Positions 5,378-19,722 of a stretch of DNA of 53,601 nucleotides are shown piece after piece; positions within the stretch are counted from its first letter, which is position 1, and the number at the start of each line of letters is the position of its first letter. Position numbers and translations under genes: made by a program. Location: sequence record DRR723986_13570; one strand, 5' to 3'. The notes beneath the pieces are model-generated. The model did not search any database. It worked only from the letters and a program-made list of their open reading frames with translations, and was not told the DNA's origin.

Positions 5378-6109
5378 ATGAAAGGATTTTTAGGAGAACT
5401 TATTGGAACTTTTGTTCTTGTTTTTATCGGCTGCGGCTCAGTTGGCTGGGCAATTTTTATTGACCCTCTTGTATTGTGGCAAATTGCTATTATTTGGGGT
5501 GTTGGGGTTGCGTTAGCCATTTACAGTTCTATGGCTCTTTCACATGCGCATTTAAATCCAGCAGTGAGTTTGGGCTTTTTATTCAAAAAAGAATTAAAAT
5601 TGAATCAACTACCAGCTTATTTATCGGGTCAATTTGCTGGAGCTTTTATCGCAGCATTAGCGCTTTATTTTTGTTTTGAATCTTATTTCGTGACCAAAGA
5701 TATTCAATCGGCAATGATGTTTGGTGAGTATTTTCCAAATCCCGGAAATCACAATTTGAAAGACTTAAGTTTGTCAGAAGCGTTTGCATTTGAGGCCTTA
5801 GGAACCTTTTTATTAATGTTTGGTATATTATTGATTATCGGTTTAAAATTGAAATACAAGAAAATACTTAATCCTCTGTTAATTGGCGTTTTGCTAGCTG
5901 TGTTAATCTATTTTATTGCCCCTTATACCCAGGCCGGTTTTAATCCGGCAAGAGATTTTTCACCAAGGTTACTGAGTACAGTATTTGGTTGGGATGTCAA
6001 GATTACTTTTTCTGGTATGGGTTGGTTATTCGTATATATTATTGCTCCAATTACGGGAGCAATTATAGCAGTCGTACTCAATTCTTTAATACAAAAAAAG
6101 GCCGCCTGA
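5378..6109 (+). CDS. MIP family channel, aquaglyceroporin (GlpF-like)
   Basis: HLNPAVS and FNPARD motifs, about 6 TM segments. Confidence 0.9.
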   Translation: MKGFLGELIGTFVLVFIGCGSVGWAIFIDPLVLWQIAIIWGVGVALAIYSSMALSHAHLNPAVSLGFLFKKELKLNQLPAYLSGQFAGAFIAALALYFCFESYFVTKDIQSAMMFGEYFPNPGNHNLKDLSLSEAFAFEALGTFLLMFGILLIIGLKLKYKKILNPLLIGVLLAVLIYFIAPYTQAGFNPARDFSPRLLSTVFGWDVKITFSGMGWLFVYIIAPITGAIIAVVLNSLIQKKAA

Positions 6110-6126
6110 TTGAATCAAACGGCCTC
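6093..6126. terminator. Intrinsic terminator between convergent genes (U-tract on the - strand)
   Basis: AAAAAAAGGCCG-cctgattgaatcaaa-CGGCCT hairpin. Confidence 0.7.
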
Positions 6127-6144
6127 AACTTATCTTAATTAAGC

Positions 6145-8565
6145 TTAGTTGATTTTTCCAACAATTGCTTCTGTTACATTGATGATGTGATCACCAACTT
6201 TCTCACATGATGAGAACATGTTGCTAAACACCATTCCGCTTTCCATATTGAAATCTTTTTTACCAAGATTTTGAAGATGTTCTTTACGCATTGCATCTCT
6301 TTTCTTGTTAATCTTGTTTTCAATCTCTGCGGCTTTATCTATCGTTACTCCATCCCAATCAGCATTTAAGTTTTCAGTCATGGTAACAAAGGCCTCATCC
6401 ACTAATTTGAACATGTCCATTAAGCTGGCTCTTTGCTCAGGTAAGAAATAGATTTTTTGCTCATCTTTTCTTTCAATTGCTTTAGATACTTGATAAAAGA
6501 TGTCTCCAATTCTTTCTAAGTCATTTACAATTGCATTCATTGATCTTACTCTAATCGAAGTTTCTTCAGACATTTCTCCTTCCGAAACTTTCGCTAAGTA
6601 ATTCGCTACTTCAATCTCAACTCTATCTGTGATCTCTTCGTACTTAGCCATTTTATCATGCAATTTGACTTTCGCTTTTTTGTTTTGTTCTTTCAACAAG
6701 TCTTGTGCAAATGTTGACATACGTCCTGTCAGTTCACCGAACTTAGCTACTTCTTTTTTAGCTTCAAGGATCGATAAATCAGGAGTACCCATAATTCCAG
6801 TACCGATATAATCTAGGTGAAATTCTTCATCAGCACCACCTTTTGACTTCACAGTTTTTTCCGCTACTCTAACCAACCATGGCACAAACCAGATTAAGAT
6901 TAATACGTTCATTAAGTTGAACGCCGAGTGGAATATTGCGATTCCTAAGTTGGCAGCGTTTCCATCTGTGTACGGATCGCCATCTATAAGGGCAGCGATT
7001 CCCTTCAAAATGAATGGGAATAATAAAATAGCCCAACCAACACCGATAATATTGAATAAGGAGTGAATTCTAGCAGAACGCTTCGCGTGAACGTTTCCAA
7101 TTAATGAAGCTAACTCAGCTGTAATAGTTGTCCCGATATTTTCACCCAAAATCATTGCGGATGCAACTTCAAAAGGAATAACTCCTCCTGCAACCATTGT
7201 CATGGTCAAAGCCATTGCTGCAGATGACGATTGAATCACTACTGTTACCAATGCACCTAGAATAACGAACATTAATGGTCCGTACCAAACATCTTTAAAA
7301 TCAATAAAAAACTGAACGATTGACGAGTCAGCTCCTAAAGAAGGTACTGCATGTTTCAATTCCCCAAGTCCCATAAATAGTAACGCGAAACCAATAATTA
7401 CAGAGGCCCACATTTTTGCTTTTCCTTTGGAGAAAAATAACATTGGTGCACCAAAAGCAATGAAGATTAAAGCATAAGAAGCTAAACTTACTTTGAACCC
7501 AAATAAAAGGATCAACCATGCTGTGATTGTTGTTCCAATATTGGCTCCCATCATTACTCCAGCTGACTGACGTAAGGTCATTAGTCCAGCATTTACAAAA
7601 CTCACTGTCATTACCGTGGTAACAGATGAAGATTGAACAATAGAAGTAATACCGAATCCTGTAAATACACCTTTAACTCTGTTAGAAGTGATAGATCCTA
7701 ACATATTTCTCAATCTTGAACCTGCAGCTTTTTGAAGACCTTCTGACATGATTTTCATACCGAAAATGAACATCCCTAAGGCCCCGATTAACACGAGAAG
7801 TTTAAAGATACCCCAAGCTCTTTCAGTTTTTACTTTGCCTTTAGGAGACCAAACTGTCGTTTCACCAAGATTTAATCCAACTTTATACACATAGTTTTCT
7901 CCACCTACTAAATCTGATAATTTATGTTTAACGCTATTTATCGAAATCCCATCTTCTTGTACCCATGGAGCTTTAGCTTTGTCAGCTTTATTTTGCTTTT
8001 CTCCAATTTTTGTGTTGTACTTTACTGAGAAAGATGCATCAGGGTAAATTGAAAGGATTTCAACTAATTTATTGTGCTCAATAGCAAACATTAAATCAGC
8101 AGCTTCTTCTTTACCTTTTGAAGAATGATTTTTGAAAATAGATTCGCTTAAAGAGTTAAAATGATTAGATCCACTTTCAGCAAATTTGCTAGAATTTTCA
8201 TCAGCCGCGTATACGTTAAATTCAAAAATGTGATTTTCCTCAATATCCTTTAGTTGCAGCTCGCCCTTAGCAACATCAATTTTTTGACTTAGCCATTGAT
8301 CAGTTCCTAATTGACGGTAACTTAAAATAGCTGATTCACCAGCACCTTTAATGGCTGTCCACCTTAAGGTCAGTTTTCCAGTTTCAAAAGGAACTAGGGT
8401 TAAAGAGTCTTTATCATTCTTGAATTCAAATTCAAATCCCTCAATTGATAAAGTTTGAGCTTCTAGCGAAATTGATTCTATGTTGACTGAATCTGGATTG
8501 ATCTGAGCATTTAACACTCCTCCTAACAAGAAGATAAATCCTAATAATGCGCTTAATTTTTTCAT
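6145..8565 (-). CDS. Na+/Pi cotransporter (NptA/SLC34 family) with C-terminal PhoU-like domains and an atypical ~250 aa exported N-terminal FN3-like extension
   Basis: Two QSSS motifs, GANIGTT and GENIGTT repeats, PhoU-like DLERIGD and CEKVGDH; signal peptide plus soluble beta-rich region before W251. Confidence 0.92.
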   Translation of the reverse strand: MKKLSALLGFIFLLGGVLNAQINPDSVNIESISLEAQTLSIEGFEFEFKNDKDSLTLVPFETGKLTLRWTAIKGAGESAILSYRQLGTDQWLSQKIDVAKGELQLKDIEENHIFEFNVYAADENSSKFAESGSNHFNSLSESIFKNHSSKGKEEAADLMFAIEHNKLVEILSIYPDASFSVKYNTKIGEKQNKADKAKAPWVQEDGISINSVKHKLSDLVGGENYVYKVGLNLGETTVWSPKGKVKTERAWGIFKLLVLIGALGMFIFGMKIMSEGLQKAAGSRLRNMLGSITSNRVKGVFTGFGITSIVQSSSVTTVMTVSFVNAGLMTLRQSAGVMMGANIGTTITAWLILLFGFKVSLASYALIFIAFGAPMLFFSKGKAKMWASVIIGFALLFMGLGELKHAVPSLGADSSIVQFFIDFKDVWYGPLMFVILGALVTVVIQSSSAAMALTMTMVAGGVIPFEVASAMILGENIGTTITAELASLIGNVHAKRSARIHSLFNIIGVGWAILLFPFILKGIAALIDGDPYTDGNAANLGIAIFHSAFNLMNVLILIWFVPWLVRVAEKTVKSKGGADEEFHLDYIGTGIMGTPDLSILEAKKEVAKFGELTGRMSTFAQDLLKEQNKKAKVKLHDKMAKYEEITDRVEIEVANYLAKVSEGEMSEETSIRVRSMNAIVNDLERIGDIFYQVSKAIERKDEQKIYFLPEQRASLMDMFKLVDEAFVTMTENLNADWDGVTIDKAAEIENKINKKRDAMRKEHLQNLGKKDFNMESGMVFSNMFSSCEKVGDHIINVTEAIVGKIN

Positions 8566-8589
8566 TTTATAACGTATAATTTTACGCTA

Positions 8590-8645
8590 CAAAAGTAGAC
8601 CATCAATCAACCTAATTAGAAGTTTCAATGTTAAGCTTACGTTAT
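8590..8645 (-). promoter_or_regulatory. Na/Pi cotransporter promoter: -7 TACTTTTG plus tandem box ATAACGT-aagc-TTAACAT (candidate Pho box)
   Basis: -7 at 8590-8597; heptamers at 8628-8634 and 8639-8645 (11-bp period); 30-nt gap. Confidence 0.7.
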
Positions 8646-8855
8646 CAAAATTCGTTGAAATGTTAACAGTCCAAGATCTCATCAGAAATTTCAAGAATTT
8701 TTTTATTCTGAAAGGCCTGATTTATAAGATTTAGCCATGTTATGCTAATTTATATTTAATGTTATCAAATCATTATGAATCGCCCTCTAATATAAATCGA
8801 ATGTTAATTATGCTCTTTCTTTGTGCCAGATTTAAAACAGAAAAAAATAAATCTC

Positions 8856-10088
8856 ATGAAGAAAATAGTTGCAATCAGTTTATTAATTTTTATTTCAACA
8901 GCCTCTATCGCTCAAGTCTCAGCTTATAAGTTTGGTAAAGGGTTAAATATTTATGGAGCAGATTCAAGTTTCTATATGAAATTCGGAATGCGTTTTCAAA
9001 ATTTGTTCTCAAACGAATGGGATGTGACCAATGATGACTTAAGTCAGATAGAAAATTATGATGCCAACTTTTTGGTGAGACGAGCACGACTTAAATTTAA
9101 CGGTTATGCCTTTACACCTAAGTTGAAATGGAAAATGGAGCTAGGACTTTCTAATAGAGATATTAGTGGTGGAAATACTCCACAACACAGAAATGTTGCA
9201 AGAGTAATTTTAGATGCATGGGCCGATTGGAACTTCGCAGGTAACTTCTCATTGAAAATTGGACAGGGCAAGTTACCTGGTAACAGAGAGCGTGTAATTT
9301 CTTCAGGTAACCTTCAGTTTGTAGATCGATCAAGAGTTAATAGTCGATTTAATATAGACCGTGATATGGGATTACAGTTGACACATCACATGACTTTAGG
9401 AAAACAGTTTTATATCAAAGAATGGGCCTGTTTAACGCAAGGTGAAGGAAGAGATATCACAGGTGGATTTAATGGTGGATTTGATTATACTTTGAGAGTA
9501 GAAATGATGCCATTCGGAAAATTTGCTTCAAAAGGTGATTATGTAGGTGCAGATTTGAAAAGAGAGGAGAAACCAAAACTTTCAATAGGAGCTTCTTATG
9601 ATATCAACGTTAATTCAATTAGAGAAAGAGGCCAGTTAGGATCTTTTATTCAAGATGCCAATGGAGATTACCATGGTAAAACCCTACAAACTTTATTTGT
9701 TGATTTAATGTTTAAATACAAAGGTTTTTCTGTGATGGCCGAGTATGCTAATAAGCAAACGGCAGATGGAGATTACAATGTTTATGACGACTCGTCAAAT
9801 GTTGTTGGAACTATGTATACTGGAGAAGGTTTGAATGTTCAAGCTGGATATGCCTTCAAAAATAATTATGAGGTTGCTTTAAGGATGACAAATATACGTC
9901 CTGACTTTGGAGTTTCTGCTAATGAAAATGAGTACGGAATTTGTTTATCAAAATATTTTGTAGGTCATAAGTTGAAGGTTCAAACAGATATAAATTATAG
10001 ACAACGATACGTTTACGGGTCAACAGCACCTGATCAAGGAGCGACAGATAATTTGTTTTATCGTATCCAGATGGATTTGCACTTTTAA
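8856..10088 (+). CDS. Phosphate-selective porin OprO/OprP family
   Basis: Signal peptide, FLVRRARLKFNG, GQGKLPGNRERVISSGNLQFVDRS, DRDMG, C-terminal F; divergent from the Na/Pi transporter. Confidence 0.85.
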   Translation: MKKIVAISLLIFISTASIAQVSAYKFGKGLNIYGADSSFYMKFGMRFQNLFSNEWDVTNDDLSQIENYDANFLVRRARLKFNGYAFTPKLKWKMELGLSNRDISGGNTPQHRNVARVILDAWADWNFAGNFSLKIGQGKLPGNRERVISSGNLQFVDRSRVNSRFNIDRDMGLQLTHHMTLGKQFYIKEWACLTQGEGRDITGGFNGGFDYTLRVEMMPFGKFASKGDYVGADLKREEKPKLSIGASYDINVNSIRERGQLGSFIQDANGDYHGKTLQTLFVDLMFKYKGFSVMAEYANKQTADGDYNVYDDSSNVVGTMYTGEGLNVQAGYAFKNNYEVALRMTNIRPDFGVSANENEYGICLSKYFVGHKLKVQTDINYRQRYVYGSTAPDQGATDNLFYRIQMDLHF

Positions 10089-11320: not shown

Positions 11321-12004
11321 ATGAACAAATCAATCCTAATTATTGATGATGAACAAGATATTCGTGTCTTGTTAAAGTATAATCTTGAAAAAGAAGGATT
11401 TACTATTGCGGAGGCTGAAAACGGGCAGCTGGGTATTGAACTCGCCTTGAAATTTAATCCAGATTTAATTTTATTGGATGTGATGATGCCGGATATGGAT
11501 GGCATTGAAACTTGTGAGAAGATTAAAACGCATGACTCGCTTAAAAACACCATGATTTGTTTTTTAACCGCCAGGGGAGAAGATTACTCCCAAATTGCAG
11601 GTTTTGATGCAGGTGCTGATGATTATATCACGAAGCCCATTAAGCCGAAAGTTTTGGTTAGCCGAATCCATGCACTCTTAAGAAGACAATCAGATGTTCA
11701 ATCTGAAGATACAACTTCAAGTTCTGAAAGTAATGCAGGCATTGTTTTGGATAGAGAAAAGTACAAAGTATTTAAGGATGGTCAGCCCGTTAAATTACCA
11801 CGAAAAGAGTTTGAATTATTGGCCCTTATCATGTCAAAACCTGAAAAGGTGTTTCACAGAGATGAAATAATGAATAAGGTTTGGGGAACAGAAGTAGTGG
11901 TTGGAGACCGAACTATTGATGTTCACATCAGAAAACTCCGAAAAAAATTAGGAGAAGAACATATCCATACCATAAAAGGAGTTGGGTATAAATACGAAGC
12001 TTAA
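11321..12004 (+). CDS. OmpR/PhoB-family response regulator (PhoB/PhoP-like), copy 1
   Basis: IIDDE, LLDVMMP, FLTAR, ADDYITKP, wHTH DRTIDVHIRKLR, TIKGVGY. Confidence 0.92.
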   Translation: MNKSILIIDDEQDIRVLLKYNLEKEGFTIAEAENGQLGIELALKFNPDLILLDVMMPDMDGIETCEKIKTHDSLKNTMICFLTARGEDYSQIAGFDAGADDYITKPIKPKVLVSRIHALLRRQSDVQSEDTTSSSESNAGIVLDREKYKVFKDGQPVKLPRKEFELLALIMSKPEKVFHRDEIMNKVWGTEVVVGDRTIDVHIRKLRKKLGEEHIHTIKGVGYKYEA

Positions 12005-12067: not shown

Positions 12068-13318
12068 TTATAAATCTCTTGTCCATCCTGAAGTCCATCC
12101 TGAATCAGCTCCAACTCCGTTTCCGTTAACTGCGGTTGATCCTAGGTTAGCAGCATTTGTGCTGTCTGTTCCAACAGTTGCAGCAACGACCCAATCATTG
12201 GTTACATTAGATGTTGTTACGTTTGTCACTTGGAAATTTCCAGCAGTTACATTCGCAACGGTAACGTCATGTTGAATATCAATTCCATCTTTCGCATCCT
12301 GAATATATACGTTGTCTAAGTTCACAGCCGTACCTTCTCTTAATTTGATGGCATCTTTGCCAGCAGAAACACCTCTTCCGTAAATTGAAAGTTTAGAAAT
12401 AGTTGGGTAAGACATTGGTGTTGCAGCATTGTTAGAACCATTGTTGTCAGCCTCAATTCCTCTATCTCCTAATGAAGGGTCTTGTTCAACGATCCAGTTT
12501 TCACCAGTTCCTATCCAACCATGAGTCCAATCGAATGAATCATCACCATTTCCTGTTGAAACCGCGTAAGATAAGTTTGCTGCTCCACCAAAAAACTCAA
12601 AGCCATCATCATTTCCTCTGTAGGCTTGTAAGTGGTGCAAGGTTGTTCCTGATCCAACACCGTTAAAAGAAAATCCATTTAATTCGTTGTCAGTAGATAA
12701 TAATTTACCAGCATATTCAACTCTTACATAACACATGGTTCCTGAGTTGTCGGTGTTATCTGTTCCACCATAAGTTCCTGTGTTTCCTTCACCCTCAGCA
12801 GTAGCGCCAACGTTAATTTCAGCATAACCGTTTAAGATGATTCCTCCCCATGCTCCTGGAGCAGGATTGTCAGCAACTGGTGTAAATACAATTGGTGCAG
12901 AAGCTGTTCCGCATGCATTAATCATTGCACCTTGTTGAATTGATAAGAAAGGAACTGTTCCGTCATCAGCTGTATGAACTGTTGTTCCTGCTTCAATCGT
13001 TAAAGTAACTCCGTCATTAACAAATACGCCACCAGATAATAACCAGTTTGAAGAAGCATCTAAAGTTAAATCTGCAGTAATATTTCCAGATAATTGTTTG
13101 TATTCAACTCCATTTATAACTTGATCATCCCAAGGATTGTCTGTATAAGTACATGGGTTGTCTTTGTCTTCTTTTTTGGCTTCTGCATTGTAATTGTCTG
13201 CAGTTGGATCTGTACATCCTTTCTTCTTACAAGAAGGAGTTGCCATGATAACACCTCCTAAAAGTGCCATTCCAATGATAGTTGATTTTCTTAGTTTCAT
13301 TTCTTTTATTTTTCTCAT
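12068..13318 (-). CDS. Surface lipoprotein with beta-helix-like Gly/Asn/Asp repeats, probable partner of the adjacent TonB-dependent receptor
   Basis: Lipobox ATPS-C then KKK..D; GCTDPTADNYN motif; WGGIILNG, YVRVEYAG, NELNGF, DDGFEFFGG, DDSFDW, GIEADN. Confidence 0.75.
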   Translation of the reverse strand: MRKIKEMKLRKSTIIGMALLGGVIMATPSCKKKGCTDPTADNYNAEAKKEDKDNPCTYTDNPWDDQVINGVEYKQLSGNITADLTLDASSNWLLSGGVFVNDGVTLTIEAGTTVHTADDGTVPFLSIQQGAMINACGTASAPIVFTPVADNPAPGAWGGIILNGYAEINVGATAEGEGNTGTYGGTDNTDNSGTMCYVRVEYAGKLLSTDNELNGFSFNGVGSGTTLHHLQAYRGNDDGFEFFGGAANLSYAVSTGNGDDSFDWTHGWIGTGENWIVEQDPSLGDRGIEADNNGSNNAATPMSYPTISKLSIYGRGVSAGKDAIKLREGTAVNLDNVYIQDAKDGIDIQHDVTVANVTAGNFQVTNVTTSNVTNDWVVAATVGTDSTNAANLGSTAVNGNGVGADSGWTSGWTRDL

Positions 13319-13330
13319 TTATTATTGATA

Positions 13331-13422
13331 CAAATATCGGTAGCTTACGTGCCAATGCATTTAAGCTGAGGTTATACTTAGGTTATCTAATGGTGAATTG
13401 CTACTTAACATTGGCTTAAGAT
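13331..13422 (-). promoter_or_regulatory. Lipoprotein promoter: -7 GATATTTG plus ATAACCT-aagt-ATAACCT, with an extra oppositely oriented pair TTAACAT-tggc-TTAAGAT
   Basis: -7 at 13331-13338; heptamers at 13369-13375 and 13380-13386 (30-nt gap); + strand pair at 13405-13411 and 13416-13422. Confidence 0.7.
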
Positions 13423-13489: not shown

Positions 13490-16450
13490 TTAATCTACTT
13501 TCTGTTTTTTAGAATTTGTTTTACCAATAAAATTGTAGGATAATGATAAACTAAAATCAATTCCTCTTCTAAAACTCGATACTTGTAATTCTTGACCTAC
13601 ATTTTGCATGTCTTCTTGAACTACATTAATGAATGGATTCAATAAGTTTTTTCCTTTTATTCCGATAGAGAAACGCTCATCAAATGTAATTTTTGACACA
13701 AGGTTAAGCGTTCCCACTGGCTGAGCGTATTGATCACCAATTCCATTACCTCCTACTGCAACTAATCTTCTTCCAAAGACATTGTAAGCCAATGCAACTA
13801 ATACATCTTTAGATTTTCCATCTTCATTTTTTAATCGCTTTTGGTATCTGAGGTCTAAGTTCACAAGATACGGAGATGCTCCTTCCAATGGTCTTCTATA
13901 ATTCGTGCTGATATTTCCCGCATCCAATGTATCAATGGTAACTTGTGTCCACATATAAGATGCATTAAATCCTAATCCGAAATCTTTTAAGAAAGATGAA
14001 TCTCTGTTCTCTTCTTTAACTAAGAAATCTAAACTTCTAACATACTCAACTTCTACACCAGCTACATGCCCTTGTTTGGCATTTGAAAAACTGGCTAATT
14101 GGCCAGATGCTGTACCTCTCATAGTTTGTTCGATAGGATTTTTTAGGTATTTGTAAAACCCTCCGATAGTAATCATTTGACCTGGGCTAGGGTATCTCTC
14201 ATATCTGAAATCAACGTTATAATTCTCACCATTTTTCAAAGTATCGTTTCCTTGGGCTTTAGTACCAGCAAAGAATTGGATATACTGAAATGGCGCTACT
14301 TCGTTAAACTTAGGACGGGTAAGTGTTTTGCTTGCTACGAATCTGAAAACATCTTTTTCAGACGCATCATATTTTAAAATTAGGCTAGGTAGCAGGCCTT
14401 GCATTGGGTCGTTTGGTACAATTGTATTGTTAAATTCAGAAGGTACTGTTTGATTTCTATTATACACTCTTTGATAACCATCTTCAAATCTGATTCCAGG
14501 TGTTACTTGTAATTTATTGAATCTGAACTTCGCATCTACGTAACCTGCTAACACTGTTTGCTCAGCCAAATATGATGAACCAAAGTTCGACAACTCATCT
14601 ATATAGAACAATCCACTTGTGTGATTTTCGTTAGATAGATAATAATCTGTGTTGTAGATGTCAATTGGCTGAATGCTGTCAGATAAGGCTTTAATGTTGT
14701 AGTTGTATTGTTTATAATCGAATTCTCTGGTTTTGGTCTTATAATCCACACCAGCTCTGATAGTAATTAAGTCAACCACTTCAACTTGTTTACGTTTGTT
14801 CAATTCTTCTTTAAATTTCAATACGTAAGCCACCTGACCCTTTGCCGCAATTTCTTGCTCTTTTAATATTGAGAAAAAGCGGTGATTTTCATTAACATCT
14901 AAGGCGTTCCACATATCGTAAGCACCTGTTTCTTCTCTGTCTCCTGTGTATAATGCTACTAATTGTCTTCTGTCCGGTTCTTTGCTTCCGGTAAAACTTA
15001 CTGATCCACGCCAATCAACAATTAAGCGCGCGAAGTTTTTGTCTTCTTTATGGGTCATTAGTTTATGCGTTCCAATAACTTGATTTACGTTGAGGTAGTT
15101 TTGAGAGTAAGTCATTCTTCTAGAGTAAACATTGAAAGGGTCATAGTCAAAATGATATCCCCATGTTTCTCTTGTTTCATCATCTGATTTATTCACGAAA
15201 ATTGAATTGAATGAAATGTTATGATTAGGGTTTAAACGCAAATACAAGTTCAATAGCCCAGTAGTTGAGGTTTCATAATTGTACTTATAAACATCATAGT
15301 TTAATCGCTCTTCAGATTGTGCATTGATGATTTTTACAACACCTTCTTGGTAAGATAGCTTATTATCATTTTTAAGTAAAGCCATGATCCCAAAACCTTT
15401 AGATTTATCTTCTGATTTTGAGAAAGGAATAAACCCTCCGCCTGTCATTGAAATGCTTGTGTTAGGTCTGGCAGTTTTCTCAATTAACCCAAAATTATTT
15501 TGAAAATCTGATCCTATATCTGGGTTAGTATTGTATAACTTGTCTGGAAATAAATCGTTGACACCAGGGAAAGAAGTTAAATCTTTTGAATTCGCGTAAA
15601 CGCCTTCAGGGATGTCTCTAGTGCCGTCATCAAACCCAAGAAAGTCTAATTTCCCTCCATTATAGGTTTTGAACGTTCTACCCGTAGTTTGAGAATTACC
15701 TCCAGTGCTCATAGACATTTTGAATGTCGGCTCATTGTAAAAGCTTTTGGTGGTGATATTGAAAGCACCTCCTGCAAAATCACCATAAAATTCTGGAGAC
15801 ATTACCTTAGAAACTTGAACAGAGCTGACCACATCAGTTGGGAACAAATCAAGAGGAATCACTCTAAAGTCTGGGTCGGGAGAGGGTAATGGTAATCCAT
15901 TCATGTAAACCACATTGTATCGATCACCTAATCCTCTTACATATAAAACCGACCCTACAGTTGACAATCCCGTAATTTTTTTCGTTGCATCTGCGACATC
16001 ACCAGCACCTTTTTGCTCCATTTGTGAAGCAGTTTGAACAGTAACTACTTTGTTATCATCTTTCGTGTCTTTTGCTGCTTTAATCTCAGATCCACCTCCG
16101 CTTGAAATTTTACCATTTACAACTACAACTGGCAATTCGTCATTGGCAGACATTTGAACATCTAGTTTTGAAACTTCTCCTGCTTTTACCATGAAGGTTA
16201 TGGTATCTTTTCTCATTCCCGTATACGAAACCATAATTCTATGCTCTCCTGGAGAAAGGTTAAAATTGAAATGACCGTCAAAATCGGTTTGAGCAAATTT
16301 GCCTTCATTCAATTCAACAACTTTAGCAAATACTAATGGCTCTTTTTTACCATCTTCTATTTTAAATAGATTACCATTTACGGTTCCTGTTTGTCCAAAA
16401 GAACTAAACAACAACCCTGCGAACAATGCGATTAAACTTATTTTTTTCAT
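13490..16450 (-). CDS. TonB-dependent receptor with N-terminal CarboxypepD_reg-like domain
   Basis: Signal peptide, QTDFDGHF, plug motif VRGLGDRYN..MNGLPLPS, SKTLTRP, YKYLKNPIE, GVEVE barrel motifs; ATG 16450. Confidence 0.92.
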   Translation of the reverse strand: MKKISLIALFAGLLFSSFGQTGTVNGNLFKIEDGKKEPLVFAKVVELNEGKFAQTDFDGHFNFNLSPGEHRIMVSYTGMRKDTITFMVKAGEVSKLDVQMSANDELPVVVVNGKISSGGGSEIKAAKDTKDDNKVVTVQTASQMEQKGAGDVADATKKITGLSTVGSVLYVRGLGDRYNVVYMNGLPLPSPDPDFRVIPLDLFPTDVVSSVQVSKVMSPEFYGDFAGGAFNITTKSFYNEPTFKMSMSTGGNSQTTGRTFKTYNGGKLDFLGFDDGTRDIPEGVYANSKDLTSFPGVNDLFPDKLYNTNPDIGSDFQNNFGLIEKTARPNTSISMTGGGFIPFSKSEDKSKGFGIMALLKNDNKLSYQEGVVKIINAQSEERLNYDVYKYNYETSTTGLLNLYLRLNPNHNISFNSIFVNKSDDETRETWGYHFDYDPFNVYSRRMTYSQNYLNVNQVIGTHKLMTHKEDKNFARLIVDWRGSVSFTGSKEPDRRQLVALYTGDREETGAYDMWNALDVNENHRFFSILKEQEIAAKGQVAYVLKFKEELNKRKQVEVVDLITIRAGVDYKTKTREFDYKQYNYNIKALSDSIQPIDIYNTDYYLSNENHTSGLFYIDELSNFGSSYLAEQTVLAGYVDAKFRFNKLQVTPGIRFEDGYQRVYNRNQTVPSEFNNTIVPNDPMQGLLPSLILKYDASEKDVFRFVASKTLTRPKFNEVAPFQYIQFFAGTKAQGNDTLKNGENYNVDFRYERYPSPGQMITIGGFYKYLKNPIEQTMRGTASGQLASFSNAKQGHVAGVEVEYVRSLDFLVKEENRDSSFLKDFGLGFNASYMWTQVTIDTLDAGNISTNYRRPLEGASPYLVNLDLRYQKRLKNEDGKSKDVLVALAYNVFGRRLVAVGGNGIGDQYAQPVGTLNLVSKITFDERFSIGIKGKNLLNPFINVVQEDMQNVGQELQVSSFRRGIDFSLSLSYNFIGKTNSKKQKVD

Positions 16451-16468
16451 AACGTTCAAATTCTTGTG

Positions 16469-16618
16469 CAAAGTTATGATGATGGCATCCAGGAGTTTTA
16501 ATAAAGGGTGTTATCAATAAGTTAAACATCATTAACATAGCCTTAACATTCAAGAAATTCATTTAACAATTGCATAACCTAGCCGAAACGTTTATGCGAT
16601 ACTGTAGGTGTAATTTTG
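16469..16618. promoter_or_regulatory. Divergent promoters (receptor and regulator 2), each with a -7 element and a tandem 11-bp-period box, plus a central TTAACAT-agcc-TTAACAT pair
   Basis: - strand: -7 TAACTTTG 16469-16476, boxes 16508-16514 and 16519-16525. Central pair 16532-16538 and 16543-16549. + strand: boxes 16563-16569 and 16574-16580, -7 TAATTTTG 16611-16618. Confidence 0.75.
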
Positions 16619-16639: not shown

Positions 16640-17302
16640 ATGGATGGATTGAAATTATTGATTGTAGATGACGAGCCAGATATTGTAGACCTGTTGGCTT
16701 ATAATTTCGAGCAGGAAAACATGCGAGTAAAAAAGGCTTATAATGGTTCTGAAGCCATAGATCTAGTTAACAATTTCGCTCCTGATGTTATTTTATTGGA
16801 TGTGATGTTGCCAGATGTTGATGGCATTGATGTGTGTGAACAAATCAGAAAAATTCCAGGGAACGAAAACACGATCATTATCTTTTTATCTGCAAGAGGT
16901 GAAGACTATTCTCAAGTTGCTGGATATAAAGCAGGAGCTGACGACTATGTGGTGAAACCGGTAAGGCTTAAAATTTTAAAGCACAAAATTGAGGTATTTA
17001 CTCAGCGTTTGATACAAAATCACACTAAAATTGAAACGTCAATTTCTATTGATAAAGATCGTTACTCCGTGCGTTATGAAGGAGAAGAATTCATTATCCC
17101 GAAAAAGGAATTTGAGTTACTAGCTTTATTGCTGAGCTCTCCTGAAAAAGTTTTTCGTAGAGATCAAATATTGAGAGATGTTTGGGGAGACACTGTGATT
17201 GGAGATAGAACAATTGATGTTCATGTCAGAAAACTTCGTGAACGATTTGGCGATACTGTAATTCAGACCATCAAAGGAGTAGGTTATAAATTTGCGGGAT
17301 AA
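16640..17302 (+). CDS. OmpR/PhoB-family response regulator (PhoB/PhoP-like), copy 2
   Basis: IVDDE, LLDVMLP, FLSAR, ADDYVVKP, DRTIDVHVRKLR, TIKGVGY. Confidence 0.92.
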   Translation: MDGLKLLIVDDEPDIVDLLAYNFEQENMRVKKAYNGSEAIDLVNNFAPDVILLDVMLPDVDGIDVCEQIRKIPGNENTIIIFLSARGEDYSQVAGYKAGADDYVVKPVRLKILKHKIEVFTQRLIQNHTKIETSISIDKDRYSVRYEGEEFIIPKKEFELLALLLSSPEKVFRRDQILRDVWGDTVIGDRTIDVHVRKLRERFGDTVIQTIKGVGYKFAG

Positions 17303-17355: not shown

Positions 17356-19722
17356 TTATCTAATTACCGTGAATCTTTTCACAATACGCTCATCATTTTC
17401 ACCTAAAACTGTCACAAAGTAAATTCCCTCTGCTAAATTATCTGTAGCAATTGAAATTTTGTTTTGAGTGGTTGTTATGGTGTTGATACGTTGACCCAAT
17501 TCATTTGTTAATTCTATTTGTTGTACTAAATCTACATTGTCAATTTGGATGAATAAAACTGTTGATGAAGGGTTAGGATACAACTGAATACCGTTTTCAG
17601 ACAGCTCGTCCATACTTTCAGTATTCCCGCTAGCGTCTGTGTAAACCGAGAAATCGTCAAAATAGAATCCGTCTTCTTTTACACCACCATCAGCAATCAA
17701 CTGGAATTTAAATAAGCAATTCGTTTGTCCAATATATCCAGATAAATCAATCTCTTCAAATACCCAATCTGACTGGAAATTATCATATAAAGGATTATCA
17801 AAATCTTGGTTATTTCCTCCTTGATTCGTGTATTTACCACATAATGGAATCCATGTTGTTCCGCCGTCTGTTGAAATCATGAATTGTGCATAATCCCAAT
17901 CATTTTCAATTTCCCACATGGCCCAGAAGTTAATGTAAGCGTAAGTTGCATCACCAAAATCAAAAGCCTGATTCAATTGACATTCTGTTTGTGAATTATG
18001 GCTATAATCTGTAAACGGACTATCAGTAATACAGTTGTTAGGCGATACAAACTCTTCGTTAGTAAAACTCCAATCTCCTGACCAGTTATTCAAGTTTGAA
18101 CAATCATCTGTAAACACGGCATTTCCAACTCCATAAGTTTTAACTATCGTATCCATTTTAGTCCAAGATCCATTATCTGTTTCAAGGATGTAAATCACAT
18201 CATCACCAAATTGGATACCTGCGTCTAAAGTGTATGAGATAGAATCTTCTACAATTTCCATTAAGTTTAAATTGTGCGTATTTCCAGTTCCCATAGTTTG
18301 AATTCCTGTAAGAGGAGTCATACTAACAGTTATAGGACCGTTCGTTAAACCTAAACGCTCTAATTCGTAGCTAAAGTATCCCGTTGTGTTGGTGACTTTA
18401 CTCAACTCAATATCTTCAGTAACACCAAATACTAATGGCATATGGGCTAATGACATGTTCATGTGAATATTTGCTTTACAAATTGCTTCAATTGATGAAG
18501 ATGGAGGCCAAAAATCATTTCCGGTTCCTTCAGATGAAACTTCTGGAGTAATAGCGAAAATGGTGTCTTTGATTTGTAAACTATCTATATACATCCAATC
18601 ATCAGAATCACCGGCTGCTGGATACAATCCTGAACTTTTAATATTTGAGTATCCATTGTGTTTTACCATATGGCTACTGTAGGCCTCAAAGTAAGGGGCA
18701 TGTGGGGCAACATCTACACTTGACCATCCCATTGGATATAGTAATAAATTACCATGGGTGTGAGCGTTGAATGCGAACTTAAAATTGTGATTAGCACAAA
18801 ACCATTTAATTGCGTTTGTTTCAACCTCAGTGAATTCTGCAGTCCCCGGCCAGGTGTCGTTTCCAGGATTATTTGAAGTCCCAGATTCATCCCAGTGATA
18901 AGAGTAGTTTCTATTTAAATCAACTCCTGCGTTTCCACCTCCGCCACTCACTAAATTTCTGTTTTTTCTGTGCATTCCTCCACCGTTCGGGTCAGTCAAT
19001 TCATTGTGTCTGTATCCGTCAGGGTTAATCATTGGAACGAAATACATTTCTGTATTATCCACTAAATAAGTCACTTCAGGGTCAGTGCCATAATTCTCTA
19101 GCATATACCACATGTAGTAGATGGTTTGCGACAATGATGCAGGTTCTCTTGCGTGATGCAGTGAAGTGTACAATACTTCTTCTTCAGCCTCATCTGTATC
19201 TGCATTGTCTGAAATTCTTAGCCAGTAAATCGGATTTCCATCTACTGTAACAAAGTTGTCGATAGGTGCTTTTGCCGTAATTAAATTGGGATACTGGGCC
19301 TTCATGTCATCCAACTCGTCAATGAACTCCTGATATTTATAGAATCCACCCATGGTTCCTAAATTGAAGTTTGAAGGAGTGGTAGGATTGTAAGCAGAAC
19401 CTCCTACAGATGGGCAAGACGCTCTGTCCTGTCCTTTAAATTGAGAAGGTCGAGTTTGATCTTTGTAATAAGCTTTTACATCTGCAATGACAATTTCGTA
19501 GTTGAAGCCGTGAGCATCAAGTTTCGCAATATCAGTAGCCGATAGATCGGTCATAAAGTGCACATTTGATTTGTGTTCTCCATGGTCAATAGGAAGTCCT
19601 AAATTCCCAAGTTGACTGAGTTCGGCATCTGAGCCGTAAACTTTAACTCGGCTCCAAGTCTCTTGTCCGAATGAAACATTGAAACACAATGCGGCTAGTA
19701 GTAAGCTGTAAATTTTTTTCAT
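17356..19722 (-). CDS. M14 zinc carboxypeptidase (carboxypeptidase T-like) with beta-sandwich domain and T9SS type A CTD
   Basis: HHAREP, NPDG, RKNR, GVDLNRNY, HTHG, TPEV; C-terminal LYPNPS...GIYFV CTD. Confidence 0.9.
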   Translation of the reverse strand: MKKIYSLLLAALCFNVSFGQETWSRVKVYGSDAELSQLGNLGLPIDHGEHKSNVHFMTDLSATDIAKLDAHGFNYEIVIADVKAYYKDQTRPSQFKGQDRASCPSVGGSAYNPTTPSNFNLGTMGGFYKYQEFIDELDDMKAQYPNLITAKAPIDNFVTVDGNPIYWLRISDNADTDEAEEEVLYTSLHHAREPASLSQTIYYMWYMLENYGTDPEVTYLVDNTEMYFVPMINPDGYRHNELTDPNGGGMHRKNRNLVSGGGGNAGVDLNRNYSYHWDESGTSNNPGNDTWPGTAEFTEVETNAIKWFCANHNFKFAFNAHTHGNLLLYPMGWSSVDVAPHAPYFEAYSSHMVKHNGYSNIKSSGLYPAAGDSDDWMYIDSLQIKDTIFAITPEVSSEGTGNDFWPPSSSIEAICKANIHMNMSLAHMPLVFGVTEDIELSKVTNTTGYFSYELERLGLTNGPITVSMTPLTGIQTMGTGNTHNLNLMEIVEDSISYTLDAGIQFGDDVIYILETDNGSWTKMDTIVKTYGVGNAVFTDDCSNLNNWSGDWSFTNEEFVSPNNCITDSPFTDYSHNSQTECQLNQAFDFGDATYAYINFWAMWEIENDWDYAQFMISTDGGTTWIPLCGKYTNQGGNNQDFDNPLYDNFQSDWVFEEIDLSGYIGQTNCLFKFQLIADGGVKEDGFYFDDFSVYTDASGNTESMDELSENGIQLYPNPSSTVLFIQIDNVDLVQQIELTNELGQRINTITTTQNKISIATDNLAEGIYFVTVLGENDERIVKRFTVIR

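Follow-up and report, generated by a model that had tools for sequence, protein, structure and literature searches.

A Na/Pi cotransporter family of the Flavobacteriales with predicted FN3 domains ahead of its transport core

Introduction

Why would a bacterial phosphate transporter carry folded domains outside the membrane, ahead of its first transmembrane helix (TM1)? A signal peptide followed by folded exported domains ahead of TM1 is uncommon among bacterial secondary transporters, and such a build is not described for any phosphate-uptake transporter in the literature that we searched. A 53,601-nucleotide stretch of DNA (record DRR723986_13570; the window) encodes a putative Na/Pi cotransporter that seems to be built in this way. 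The first-pass annotation of this DNA marked 7816-8565, which is exactly amino acids (aa) 1-250, as an exported region with two fibronectin type III (FN3)-like domains. Here we ask if the fusion is real, how widespread it is, and what the exported domains might do.

One uninterrupted gene

The list of open reading frames and the translation give a single ATG-started frame of 806 aa with no internal stop (6145..8565, minus strand). The earlier claim was that a putative signal peptide, both FN3-type domains, the NptA core, and PhoU all belong to one gene. The single frame, the profile matches, and a structural model uphold this. The features of the gene and its neighborhood are:

6145..8565, minus strand: the whole gene, with signal peptide, FN3 domain D1, FN3 domain D2, NptA/YjbB-type core, and PhoU pair (Pfam, NCBIfam, and translation; 41 full-length homologues were also aligned)
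8506..8565, minus strand: signal-peptide-like N-terminus, aa 1-20 = MKKLSALLGFIFLLGGVLNA, then Q21 (read from the sequence)
8461..8505, minus strand: low-confidence linker, aa 21-35 (pLDDT)
8191..8460, minus strand: predicted FN3 domain D1, distal, aa ~36-125; variable, net acidic, and absent from one-domain relatives (strands 40-120)
8149..8190, minus strand: inter-domain linker, aa 126-139 (dip in pLDDT between the domains)
7816..8148, minus strand: predicted FN3 domain D2, membrane-proximal, aa ~140-250; in every extended relative (VIA-align and profile)
7966..8022, minus strand: conserved basic C-C' segment of D2, aa 182-200 = KYNTKIGEKQNKADKAKAP (alignment of homologues)
7810..7821, minus strand: R249-A-W251-G252 junction from D2 to TM1 (R249 in 68/70, W251 in 69/70, G252 in 70/70)
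6841..7815, minus strand: Na/Pi core, aa 251-575 (PF02690, TIGR00704, helices, loop charges, and match to SLC34A2a)
6163..6783, minus strand: PhoU-like helical pair, aa ~595-801, predicted to be cytoplasmic (Pfam PhoU; long helices 595-801)
8566..8822: divergent intergenic region, a candidate operator, with four copies of AATGTTAW on the plus strand at 8627, 8659, 8758, and 8800
8823..10088, plus strand: divergent gene for a porin of the OprO/P type, with ATG 8856 as its likely true start (Pfam Porin_O_P)
11321..12004, plus strand: PhoB-like response regulator of the OmpR family (best NCBIfam match PhoB TIGR02154, 222 bits, below the cut-off of 296)

We considered that two genes, one for a secreted protein with FN3 domains and one for a plain NptA, might have been joined by an assembly or sequencing error. 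The chance of this is vanishingly small. An uninterrupted fusion is likewise present in 72 of the 80 best related loci. In whole genomes, 63 of 65 matches to a profile of D2 sit in open frames of 688-830 aa, and the other two are in frames of only 359 and 65 aa, which resemble pieces from contig ends. A separate, independent contig, L001, has a gene for the identical protein. Across 6100-8900, contigs from four public runs differ from the window only by substitutions; they show neither indels nor joints. One of these contigs (7730-8099) spans the junction between D2 and the core. A stop or frameshift that splits the frame was the first-pass annotation's own worry; we found none in the frame itself, in the contigs of the four runs, or in the related loci. 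As far as comparative data can refute an artefact, these data do so.

Three database proteins are short (147-192 aa) and either end or diverge at the junction. They are singletons or a pair, on contigs of just 535-1482 bases, and we did not count them as free-standing genes. Nine of the 12 short matches that we inspected continue into TM1.

Two predicted FN3 domains

AlphaFold2, run on aa 21-252 with a 70-row alignment, predicts two all-beta domains (pLDDT 93.5, pTM 0.85). A Foldseek search of the PDB with this model placed tandem FN3 pairs on top, such as FN5-6 of neogenin (6z3m_E, E = 1.8e-9, probability 1.00), and the full-length model gave the same type of FN3 matches. With VIA-align, D2 matched an FN3 domain of Ihog (2ibg_A, Z = 12.3, rmsd 2.2 over 96 residues), and both domains together matched FN3-4 of LAR (6tpu_B, Z = 11.5 over 182 residues). 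Thus, each of the exported domains is predicted to be a beta sandwich of seven strands that can be superposed on solved FN3 structures, as had been suspected from short motifs. Those motifs fall on predicted strands: in D1, LTLRW is strand B, LSYRQL is C, LQLKDIE is E, and HIFEFNVY is F; in D2, VKY is C, HKLSDL is E, and ENYVYKVG is F. D2 has two helical insertions, in the B-C loop (164-173) and in the C-C' loop (186-194). The linkers are less certain. In the full-length model, pLDDT is below 50 at aa 16-35 and is 56 for block 121-130, between the domains; the corresponding values in the N-terminal model are 68 for its first block and 70 for model block 101-110.

Sequence comparisons gave a fainter signal. 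In the FN3 clan of Pfam, the best-scoring family for D2 is Pur_ac_phosph_N (PF16656), the FN3-like N-domain of purple acid phosphatases. It matches the window protein at aa 180-247 with 17.4-20.9 bits, below the gathering score of 30 bits, so we class the region by its FN3 fold and not by a Pfam family. Across the family, 41 of 70 extensions match Pur_ac_phosph_N at E <= 0.01 (best E = 2.3e-8) and 17 of 70 match fn3 at the same threshold. D1 had no match in Pfam. Comparing aa 1-255 to the sequences in the PDB gave nothing significant (best E = 1.1), and a search of the ESM Atlas with aa 21-252 gave only generic FN3/Ig clusters with scores of at most 0.87, which is under the level of a lead. 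BLASTP found no similarity between D1 and D2 (E = 7.1), so they are not shown to be an internal duplication. We also considered a fused substrate-binding domain of the periplasmic-binding-protein fold. A Pfam scan of the protein and of the extensions found no family of this kind, and we rejected this candidate, as the exported part folds as FN3.

Transport core and topology

By its profile matches, the protein belongs to the C-terminal PhoU-bearing subtype of the NptA/YjbB-type Na/Pi cotransporters. The first Na_Pi_cotrans repeat (PF02690) matches at 265-404 (E = 3.7e-60, in two stretches), TIGR00704 matches at 256-573 with 221.6 bits (cut-off 210.1), and NF037997 scores 163.2 bits (cut-off 50). 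Because the two former matches begin at 265 and 256, we place the start of the core at about W251, in agreement with the first-pass annotation. TM1 is at 252-273. Two hairpins, of helices 296-310/313-326 and 429-444/447-459, contain the QSSS motifs (311-314 and 445-448), and the core probably has seven crossings besides these hairpins. PhoU (PF01895) matches at 608-695 in two stretches (E = 3.8e-11, 43.6 bits, cut-off 23.5), and TIGR02135 matches part of the C-terminal region.

The N-terminus resembles a signal peptide. Read by eye, MKKLSALLGFIFLLGGVLNA/Q21 begins with a basic n-region, continues with a hydrophobic run of 15 residues, and has a small residue at -1 and glutamine at +1. A basic n-region and a hydrophobic run open all 69 of the 69 aligned homologous extensions, and [AGS]-Q occurs at residues 18-28 in 30 of them. 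PMC5837995 describes a Q-rule for the signal peptidase I substrates of Bacteroidetes. We infer from the pattern that signal peptidase I probably cleaves before Q21.

The transporter is probably N-out. The loops that are rich in lysine or arginine (274-295 with five, 379-384 with three, 488-501 with three, and 567-576) alternate along the chain with loops that are acidic or neutral (407-428 and 527-534), and the C-terminal PhoU pair is necessarily cytoplasmic. Both fit the N-out topology that had been proposed from one basic loop, and together they would put the FN3 part in the periplasm. However, around 80 residues stand ahead of the aligned TM1 in SLC34, whose N-terminus is reported to be cytoplasmic, and our N-out topology is not reconciled with that.

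Distribution and evolution of the fusion

The fusion is common in Flavobacteriales. The D2 profile matches 62 of the 151 genomes that we sampled from this order and 0 of the 246 sampled from elsewhere in the phylum. Among the 113 genomes of the order sample that carry NptA, 61 have the D2 profile and 52 have plain NptA. The architecture is not rare, and the extension is largely unannotated: aa 1-255 has 43 database relatives, which all have a length of 696-829 aa and contain Na_Pi_cotrans and PhoU, but only three of the 43 have a Pfam match of any sort on the extension. Our literature search found no paper about an NptA with FN3 domains.

The 80 best related loci comprise 72 extended forms (27 with two domains and 45 with D2 only) and eight plain forms. 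The first-pass annotation stated that relatives begin at TM1, and this is true of those eight. Each of the 72 extended loci has a signal-peptide-like start. In a tree of the cores, a single branch splits extended from plain (SH-aLRT 93), and D2 is retained in all 72 proteins on the extended side. The one- or two-domain state changed at least 6-10 times on the same tree. D1 thus appears to be variable, with repeated gains or losses.

In a library of representative proteins, the full-length matches to the D2 profile were short fragments, and the others were giant multi-FN3 proteins that aligned only at profile positions ~90-130. Few full-length fusions were among the matches listed, probably because they cluster with plain NptA at 50% identity.

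Conserved residues of D1 and D2

D2 has a mean pairwise identity of 0.58, as against 0.32 for D1. D1 is acidic (mean net charge of -3.9 across 27 rows). The mean net charge of D2 as a whole is only +1.2, with values from -9 to +10 and a positive charge in 42 of 70 rows; its C-C' segment has a net charge of at least +2 in 57 of 70 rows. Most of the conserved residues of D2 are positions of the FN3 core: W160, L219, G221, Y225, G230, and W239. Beyond that core, Y183 (67 of 70 extensions), I187 (58 of 70), W201, R249, W251, and G252 are conserved, as are the C-C' residues K182, N184, T185, K186, and G188, which are invariant among the 41 two-domain proteins. From the canonical order of FN3 strands and the short linker to TM1, we deduced the probable orientation of D2 on the core: these family-specific residues would lie at the C-terminal pole of the sandwich, beside TM1, and not at its distal end.

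Just three positions of the core separate the extended cleanly from the plain forms (L277/I, S360/K, and F420/L). We dropped these as a sign of a docking site for D2: the contrast is confounded by phylogeny, since the eight plain forms are one outgroup.

Phosphate importers and neighboring genes

The window protein is a putative Na+-coupled phosphate importer. A passage of PMC13170248 treats S. aureus NptA, which likewise has a PhoU-like domain, as a phosphate importer; E. coli YjbB, a PhoU-bearing relative, is reported there as insufficient for phosphate import, so the direction of transport is an assumption.

In the nearest genome (93% complete), this is the sole Na_Pi_cotrans gene, and we found no match to PBP_like_2 or PHO4 and no PstB above the cut-off. 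Across the order sample, at a threshold that we picked after seeing the scores (E <= 1e-15), strong PstS matches occur in three of the 62 D2-positive genomes; among genomes that have plain NptA they occur in 17 of 52, and among those that lack NptA in 28 of 37. At E <= 1e-3, the counts are 16/62, 30/52, and 31/37. Neither a strong PstS nor any PHO4 (E <= 1e-3) was found in 40 of the 62 D2-positive genomes or in 28 of the 52 with plain NptA; these contrasts overstate independence because the sampled genomes are kin. As genomes with plain NptA often lack a strong PstS match and PHO4 as well, NptA does not depend on the extension in order to act as main importer.

The transporter gene adjoins a divergent gene for a porin. 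The Porin_O_P match has 39 bits (cut-off 20.9) and covers only profile positions 8-129 of 370, and the porin has no match in NCBIfam. In the flanks that we fetched, a homologue of the porin is near the transporter in 50 of 80 loci: seven of eight plain, 22 of 45 one-domain, and 21 of 27 two-domain loci. Homologues of the PhoB-like regulator are within the flanks of 40 of 80 loci.

A proposed role for D2

We tentatively propose that D2 caps the main Pho-type phosphate importer from the periplasmic side and that its conserved basic loop is close to the mouth of the transport path; our confidence in this stays well short of even. The protein would be exported by Sec and then probably cleaved by signal peptidase I ahead of Q21. 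Both FN3 domains would lie in the periplasm, TM1 (252-273) would run from outside to inside, and the PhoU pair would be in the cytoplasm. The short and nearly invariant R-x-W-G junction would couple D2 to TM1, and D2 would cap the periplasmic face of the transporter in a fixed position. The Lys/Arg-rich C-C' insertion (Y183-N-T-K-I-G-x-K...) would face the membrane and the outward-facing mouth, and it might draw in phosphate or anchor the cap to anionic lipid head groups. D1 would be a dispensable, fast-evolving add-on. Against this reading, basic residues beside a membrane can just bind lipid head groups, FN3 is a generic scaffold that is not known to have a phosphate site, and the mean net charge of D2 as a whole is low.

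A bolder idea is that D2 captures or concentrates phosphate in place of the periplasmic binding protein PstS. A secondary Na+/Pi transporter would have gained an FN3 "antenna" once in Flavobacteriales, which would permit life without the ATP-driven Pst system. We think that this is unlikely. It is also somewhat unlikely, to a lesser degree, that the exported part has no direct role with phosphate and is a module for structure or biogenesis: the signal peptide and FN3 would fix TM1 as N-out, and would stabilize the transporter or make it oligomerize. FN3 is mostly a scaffold or spacer fold, most of the conserved residues of D2 are those of the FN3 core, and the invariant R-x-W-G suggests rigid coupling to TM1. 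Furthermore, D2 was never lost once it was gained (72 of 72), which fits a part that is needed for folding. However, plain relatives insert, and presumably work, without D2 (eight of 80 loci and 52 of 113 NptA genomes), and folding of FN3 does not require the family-specific basic insertion in the C-C' loop.

The FN3 part might instead be an arm that docks to the OprO/P-type porin, to peptidoglycan, or to a periplasmic or lipoprotein phosphatase, which would hand phosphate on. FN3 domains often mediate protein contacts, the porin gene is adjacent in the window and near 43 of the 72 extended loci, and the resemblance of D2 to the N-domain of purple acid phosphatases (41 of 70 extensions) is a lead, but only a lead. 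But the pairing with the porin is independent of the FN3 arm, since it also occurs at seven of eight loci that lack the extension, and this weakly disfavors the tether to the porin that the first-pass annotation suggested. A single FN3 spans about 3.5-4 nm, too short to cross the periplasm, and 45 of the 72 extended forms have a single FN3 and would not reach the outer membrane. Further points against docking are that D1 is the least conserved part (identity of 0.32) and was repeatedly gained or lost, and that the family-specific residues of D2 would be at its membrane pole. We regard docking as quite improbable. Finally, we considered a "transceptor," in which D2 would report external phosphate or the state of the envelope through the core to PhoU and so control the PhoB-like regulator. 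The protein would indeed reach from the periplasm through the membrane into the cytoplasm, and a PhoU pair forms its C-terminal end; domains of the PhoU family are described, in a passage of PMC13170248, as importer-linked regulators of the phosphate response. Also, 40 of 80 loci have a PhoB-like regulator nearby, and 59 of 62 D2-positive genomes lack a strong PstS match. However, a plain NptA-PhoU would already link transport to PhoU without any periplasmic domain, and there is no ligand-binding fold (PAS, Cache, or PBP). This explanation seems very unlikely to us.

Comparison with known proteins

S. aureus NptA and E. coli YjbB begin at TM1. The window protein has the same two Na_Pi_cotrans repeats with QSSS hairpins, followed by a PhoU pair, but it also has a signal peptide and 230 exported residues that form two predicted FN3 domains. 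SLC34 (NaPi-II) is homologous in the first repeat (aa 255-354 vs. residues 80-181 of SLC34A2a, 9z60_A, E = 2.6e-15), but it has a large extracellular loop and neither FN3 nor a PhoU domain. In ABC importers such as OpuA and GlnPQ, an extracytoplasmic substrate-binding domain is fused to the membrane part. These resemble the window protein in that they, too, link an exported domain covalently to the part of an uptake system that lies in the membrane, which offers a model for how capture would work. But OpuA and GlnPQ are ATP-driven and use the periplasmic-binding-protein fold, while the window protein has FN3 on a secondary transporter. Unlike the purple acid phosphatases, the window protein has no phosphatase domain, and D2 has two helical insertions. 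Basigin and embigin are single-pass partners of SLC16 with Ig domains; they are separate eukaryotic proteins that act in trafficking. They also place an Ig-like sandwich at the outer face beside a transporter helix, but in the window protein the domain is fused, bacterial, and predicted to be periplasmic.

The Flavobacteriales are abundant degraders in marine and fresh waters. The fusion is fixed in a large share of them, and the transporter is often the sole recognizable phosphate importer of a D2-positive genome (40 of 62). If the FN3 cap changes affinity or regulation, then models of how these bacteria acquire phosphorus would change, and the family would be a compact and testable case of the recruitment of a scaffold domain to a transporter. 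If the cap has only a structural role, then several hundred proteins labeled as "Na/Pi cotransporter family," with 140-250 residues at their start that carry no annotation, should still have this corrected.

Upstream region and transcription

Contigs from an RNA library reach 8562 but miss the intergenic positions 8638-8825, where DNA runs give coverage. This is a weak hint that the gene is transcribed. ATGTTAA occurs within 250 bp upstream in 55 of 67 related loci, as compared to 5 of 67 random windows. The intergenic AATGTTAA repeats are candidate sites for the PhoB-like regulator.

Fusion of an exported region to a Na+/Pi cotransporter

The open reading frame at 6145..8565 (-) starts with ATG and continues unbroken through 806 codons. 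According to Pfam, two stretches of the protein match Na_Pi_cotrans (E = 3.7e-60, the first at amino acids 265–404) and two match PhoU (E = 3.8e-11); TIGR00704 from NCBIfam (Na/Pi-cotransporter II-related) spans amino acids 256–573, above its cut-off. No Pfam or NCBIfam family is above threshold in amino acids 1–250 (7816–8565), where Pur_ac_phosph_N has a sub-threshold match at 180–247 (17.4 bits versus 30).

The first-pass annotation described a fusion of an exported region to the cotransporter, and this holds. With amino acids 1–255 as the query, we found 43 clusters (E ≤ 1e-3) from Crocinitomicaceae, Lishizhenia, and other Flavobacteriales, and every one is 696–829 amino acids long with both PF02690 and PF01895. 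Their source names go no further than "Na/Pi cotransporter family protein" or "phosphate:Na+ symporter," and just 3 of the 43 have a precomputed Pfam match on the extension. Scanning species-representative genomes gave 582 relatives; we retained the best 80 loci, a set biased towards the query's own kind, and classified them by how far the first QSSS lies from the start codon. Among these best 80 of 582, 27 have about 250 extra N-terminal residues, 45 have about 140–175, and 8 have none, so the fusion is kept in 72 of 80. All of the extended forms in this set start with a basic-then-hydrophobic N-terminus.

We also considered that two separate genes had been joined by error. We set this aside on the strength of the repeated fusion, the identical 806-amino-acid protein in locus L001 (an 11-kb contig from another assembly), and contigs of four public runs over 6100–8900, which have substitutions only: no indels or joints. 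An RNA-library contig (7730–8099) spans the junction between the exported region and the first transmembrane helix (TM1, amino acids 252–273), and DNA-run contigs beginning at 7791 extend only 25 letters beyond this junction. The neighboring genes of L001 differ slightly from those of the window, with 99.3% identity for the porin and 98.4% for the chromate transporter.

Features near the transporter gene
8823..10088 (+), divergent: neighbor matching Porin_O_P (Pfam)
Beyond the porin: chromate-transporter-family gene
11321-12004 (+): OmpR-family response regulator; best NCBIfam match PhoB, 222 bits, below cut-off
12068-13318 (-): 416-aa ORF after the TonB-dependent receptor, with a lipoprotein-like start (…ATPSC…)
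13490-16471 (-): TonB-dependent receptor (Pfam/NCBIfam)
16640-17302 (+): OmpR-family response regulator; best NCBIfam match PhoB, 184 bits, below cut-off
17356-19722 (-): ORF of 788 aa, T9SS type A sorting domain at the C-terminus

The exported region is a tandem FN3 pair

The proposed FN3-like domains were recovered by structure prediction and by both structural searches. A full-length AlphaFold2 model, built from a 41-row alignment, has mean pLDDT 79.2 and pTM 0.55, with beta domains at amino acids 40–120 and 134–246 (pLDDT about 80–89). Modeling amino acids 21–252 with a 70-row alignment of extensions drawn from the loci (the window's, 26 two-domain, and 43 one-domain) gave pLDDT 93.5 and pTM 0.85. 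When this model was compared to the PDB with Foldseek, tandem FN3 pairs were on top (neogenin FN5-6, 6z3m_E, E = 1.8e-9; also Tie2, DCC, LAR, and others), and they likewise came first for the full-length model. With VIA-align (48,161 chains), the membrane-proximal domain (D2) matched an FN3 domain of Ihog (2ibg_A, Z = 12.3, rmsd 2.2 over 96 residues), and the distal domain (D1) together with D2 matched LAR FN3-4 (6tpu_B, Z = 11.5 over 182 residues). D2 is predicted to have two helical insertions, at 164–173 (B-C loop) and 186–194 (C-C' loop). Pur_ac_phosph_N matches 41 of the 70 extensions (best E = 2.3e-8) and fn3 matches 17 (E ≤ 0.01). Searched against a library of 1.8 billion proteins, the D2 profile picks up repeats in giant multi-FN3 proteins, too. 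Sequence comparison of D1 with D2 found no mutual similarity. That this PhoU-bearing NptA carries an exported two-FN3 N-terminal extension is, as a description, secure.

Membrane topology

Of the loops between the model's helices, 274–295 (5 K/R), 379–384 (3 K), and 488–501 (3 K/R) are basic, as is the stretch following 566; 407–428 and 527–534 are acidic. Because of this pattern and the PhoU pair in the cytoplasm, we infer seven crossings and two hairpins with the N-terminus of TM1 outside, as originally suggested; hairpin 1 would enter on the inner side and hairpin 2 on the outer side. Plain relatives (those without the extension) open with an acidic MEFG... immediately ahead of TM1, which fits this orientation. 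With or without cleavage of the signal peptide, the FN3 part should therefore be periplasmic.

The N-terminus is MKKLSALLGFIFLLGGVLNA, followed by Q21. The first pass saw a Sec-type signal peptide and then Q here, and [AGS]-Q occurs at residues 18–28 in 30 of 69 relatives; cleavage before Q21 is likely under the Bacteroidetes "Q-rule" (PMC5837995).

Residues 80–181 of SLC34A2a (9z60) align to amino acids 255–354 of our protein. SLC34 N-termini, with about 80 residues ahead of the aligned region, are reported to be cytoplasmic. This is a loose end for a protein that is probably N-out.

Distribution and history

We examined 151 genomes of the window's order, Flavobacteriales, with a completeness of 80% or more. 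Of these, 62 have matches to the D2 profile, 65 in all; 63 matches are in open frames of 688–830 amino acids, and the other two are in short frames (359 and 65 amino acids) that look like contig-end pieces. Na_Pi_cotrans is found in 113 of the 151 genomes, and 61 of the 113 have D2, so the architecture is not unusual for NptA in this order, contrary to the initial impression. Of 251 genomes sampled across the phylum, just two match the D2 profile, both of the window's order; no match turned up in the 246 searched from other orders (up to 11 candidates scored per genome). The window protein is securely one member of a large clade-specific family. Among 12 short database matches to the full D2 profile, 9 continue into TM1, and the 3 that end or diverge at the junction are from contigs of 535–1482 bases.

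In a maximum-likelihood tree of the 80 cores (midpoint-rooted for drawing only), a single branch divides the 72 extended from the 8 plain cores (SH-aLRT 93). The one-domain/two-domain state needs 6–10 changes on this tree. D1 positions F48, N50, G63, W69, Y83, W91, E110, and N111 are common to at least 24 of the 27 two-domain rows, which argues that D1 is one homologous domain that was repeatedly lost or transferred. In the 41-row alignment, mean pairwise identity rises from 0.32 in D1 through 0.58 in D2 and 0.73 in PhoU to 0.82 in the core.

Some genomes have two FN3-NptA genes, in tandem (G036, G137) or at separate loci (G031). Three loci (L048, L055, L079), on contigs labeled Henriciella (Alphaproteobacteria), Verrucomicrobia, and Comamonadaceae, have FN3-NptA genes nested inside Flavobacteriales clades; these are probably mis-binned metagenome contigs. 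In the family of the nearest genome, only 3 of 24 sampled genomes have D2 and 4 have any NptA, so the window's lineage is an exception within its family; PBP_like_2 matches in 21 of the 24 and PHO4 in 23. The window protein nests among Crocinitomicaceae sequences, and gene transfer and lineage-specific replacement both fit.

Other phosphate importers

The nearest genome (G001; 93% complete, with 67% of the window's sampled words) has a single Na_Pi_cotrans gene, the FN3-NptA. It has no match to PBP_like_2 (PstS) or PHO4, and its best PstB score, 154 bits, falls short of the 343-bit cut-off. In the order sample, strong PstS matches (E ≤ 1e-15, a threshold we set) are found in 3 of 62 D2-positive, 17 of 52 plain-NptA, and 28 of 37 NptA-less genomes; for PHO4, these counts are 21, 15, and 35, and for neither, 40, 28, and 1. 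In this order, then, NptA often takes the place of Pst and Pit, whether it carries FN3 or not. PstS is rarer still alongside the FN3 form than alongside plain NptA, a contrast that is descriptive only as the genomes are kin. In PMC13170248, PhoU-bearing NptA is regarded as a type of phosphate importer, and E. coli YjbB is reported to be insufficient for phosphate import.

Both the transporter family and the FN3 fold are ordinary; what is new is that the two are fused ahead of TM1, that this fusion is fixed in about two fifths of the Flavobacteriales genomes sampled, and, descriptively, that it and PstS nearly exclude each other in this sample of kin genomes. We found no paper on FN3-bearing NptA in the main text of open papers, and public annotations name only the core of these proteins.

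Proposed role of the FN3 domains

Across the 70 extensions, N146, W160, Y183, I187, W201, L219, G221, Y225, G230, W239, S240, T247, R249, W251, and G252 are at least 80% conserved, and K182, N184, T185, K186, and G188 are invariant in the two-domain set. We take W160, L219/G221, Y225, and G230 to be ordinary FN3 core and EF-loop positions. The family-specific residues of D2 are Y-N-T-K-I-G-x-K (the end of strand C and the next helix), W201, and the R-x-W-G junction; assuming the canonical FN3 strand order, they are at the sandwich pole from which the chain runs on to TM1. This placement suggests that the part of D2 under selection is the one facing the membrane, and not the distal tip of the arm. 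In 57 of 70 rows, the net charge of the C-C' segment (amino acids 180–200) is at least +2; the mean net charge of D1 is -3.9.

We tentatively favor the view that D2 would sit as a fixed periplasmic cap over the transporter, with its basic C-C' loop on the membrane surface near the transporter's mouth; D1 would be an optional outer addition. The main rival, which we rate only a little lower, is that the FN3 part has a purely structural or biogenesis role. It had also been proposed that the FN3 part tethers the transporter to the porin or to peptidoglycan. A porin homologue does lie within the flanks examined at 50 of 80 loci (21 of 27 two-domain and 22 of 45 one-domain), but plain forms are paired with a porin as well (7 of 8), single-FN3 forms predominate among the loci examined, and the distal end is poorly conserved. 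So a docking arm to porin, peptidoglycan, or a phosphatase seems unlikely. A sensory role through PhoU is possible but about as unlikely.

Neighborhood and regulation

Of 67 extended loci, 55 have ATGTTAA in the 250 bases before the gene, compared with 5 of 67 random windows, and the 257-base transporter/porin intergenic region (8566–8822) has four + strand copies of AATGTTAW. This motif is a candidate operator of a PhoB-like regulator. Neither PhoB-like regulator (11321-12004, 16640-17302) is adjoined by a histidine kinase in the window's ORF list.

The porin ORF is listed from GTG 8823, and starting at ATG 8856 (MKKIVAISLL…SIAQ/V) yields a normal signal peptide; RNA-library contig cover restarts at 8857, by this ATG. 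The 416-aa ORF has no match in Pfam or NCBIfam, and it could form a SusC/D-like pair with the TonB-dependent receptor within a phosphate-related neighborhood. The intergenic regions on the two sides of the receptor gene have one AATGTTAW each (13405-13412 and 16543-16550).
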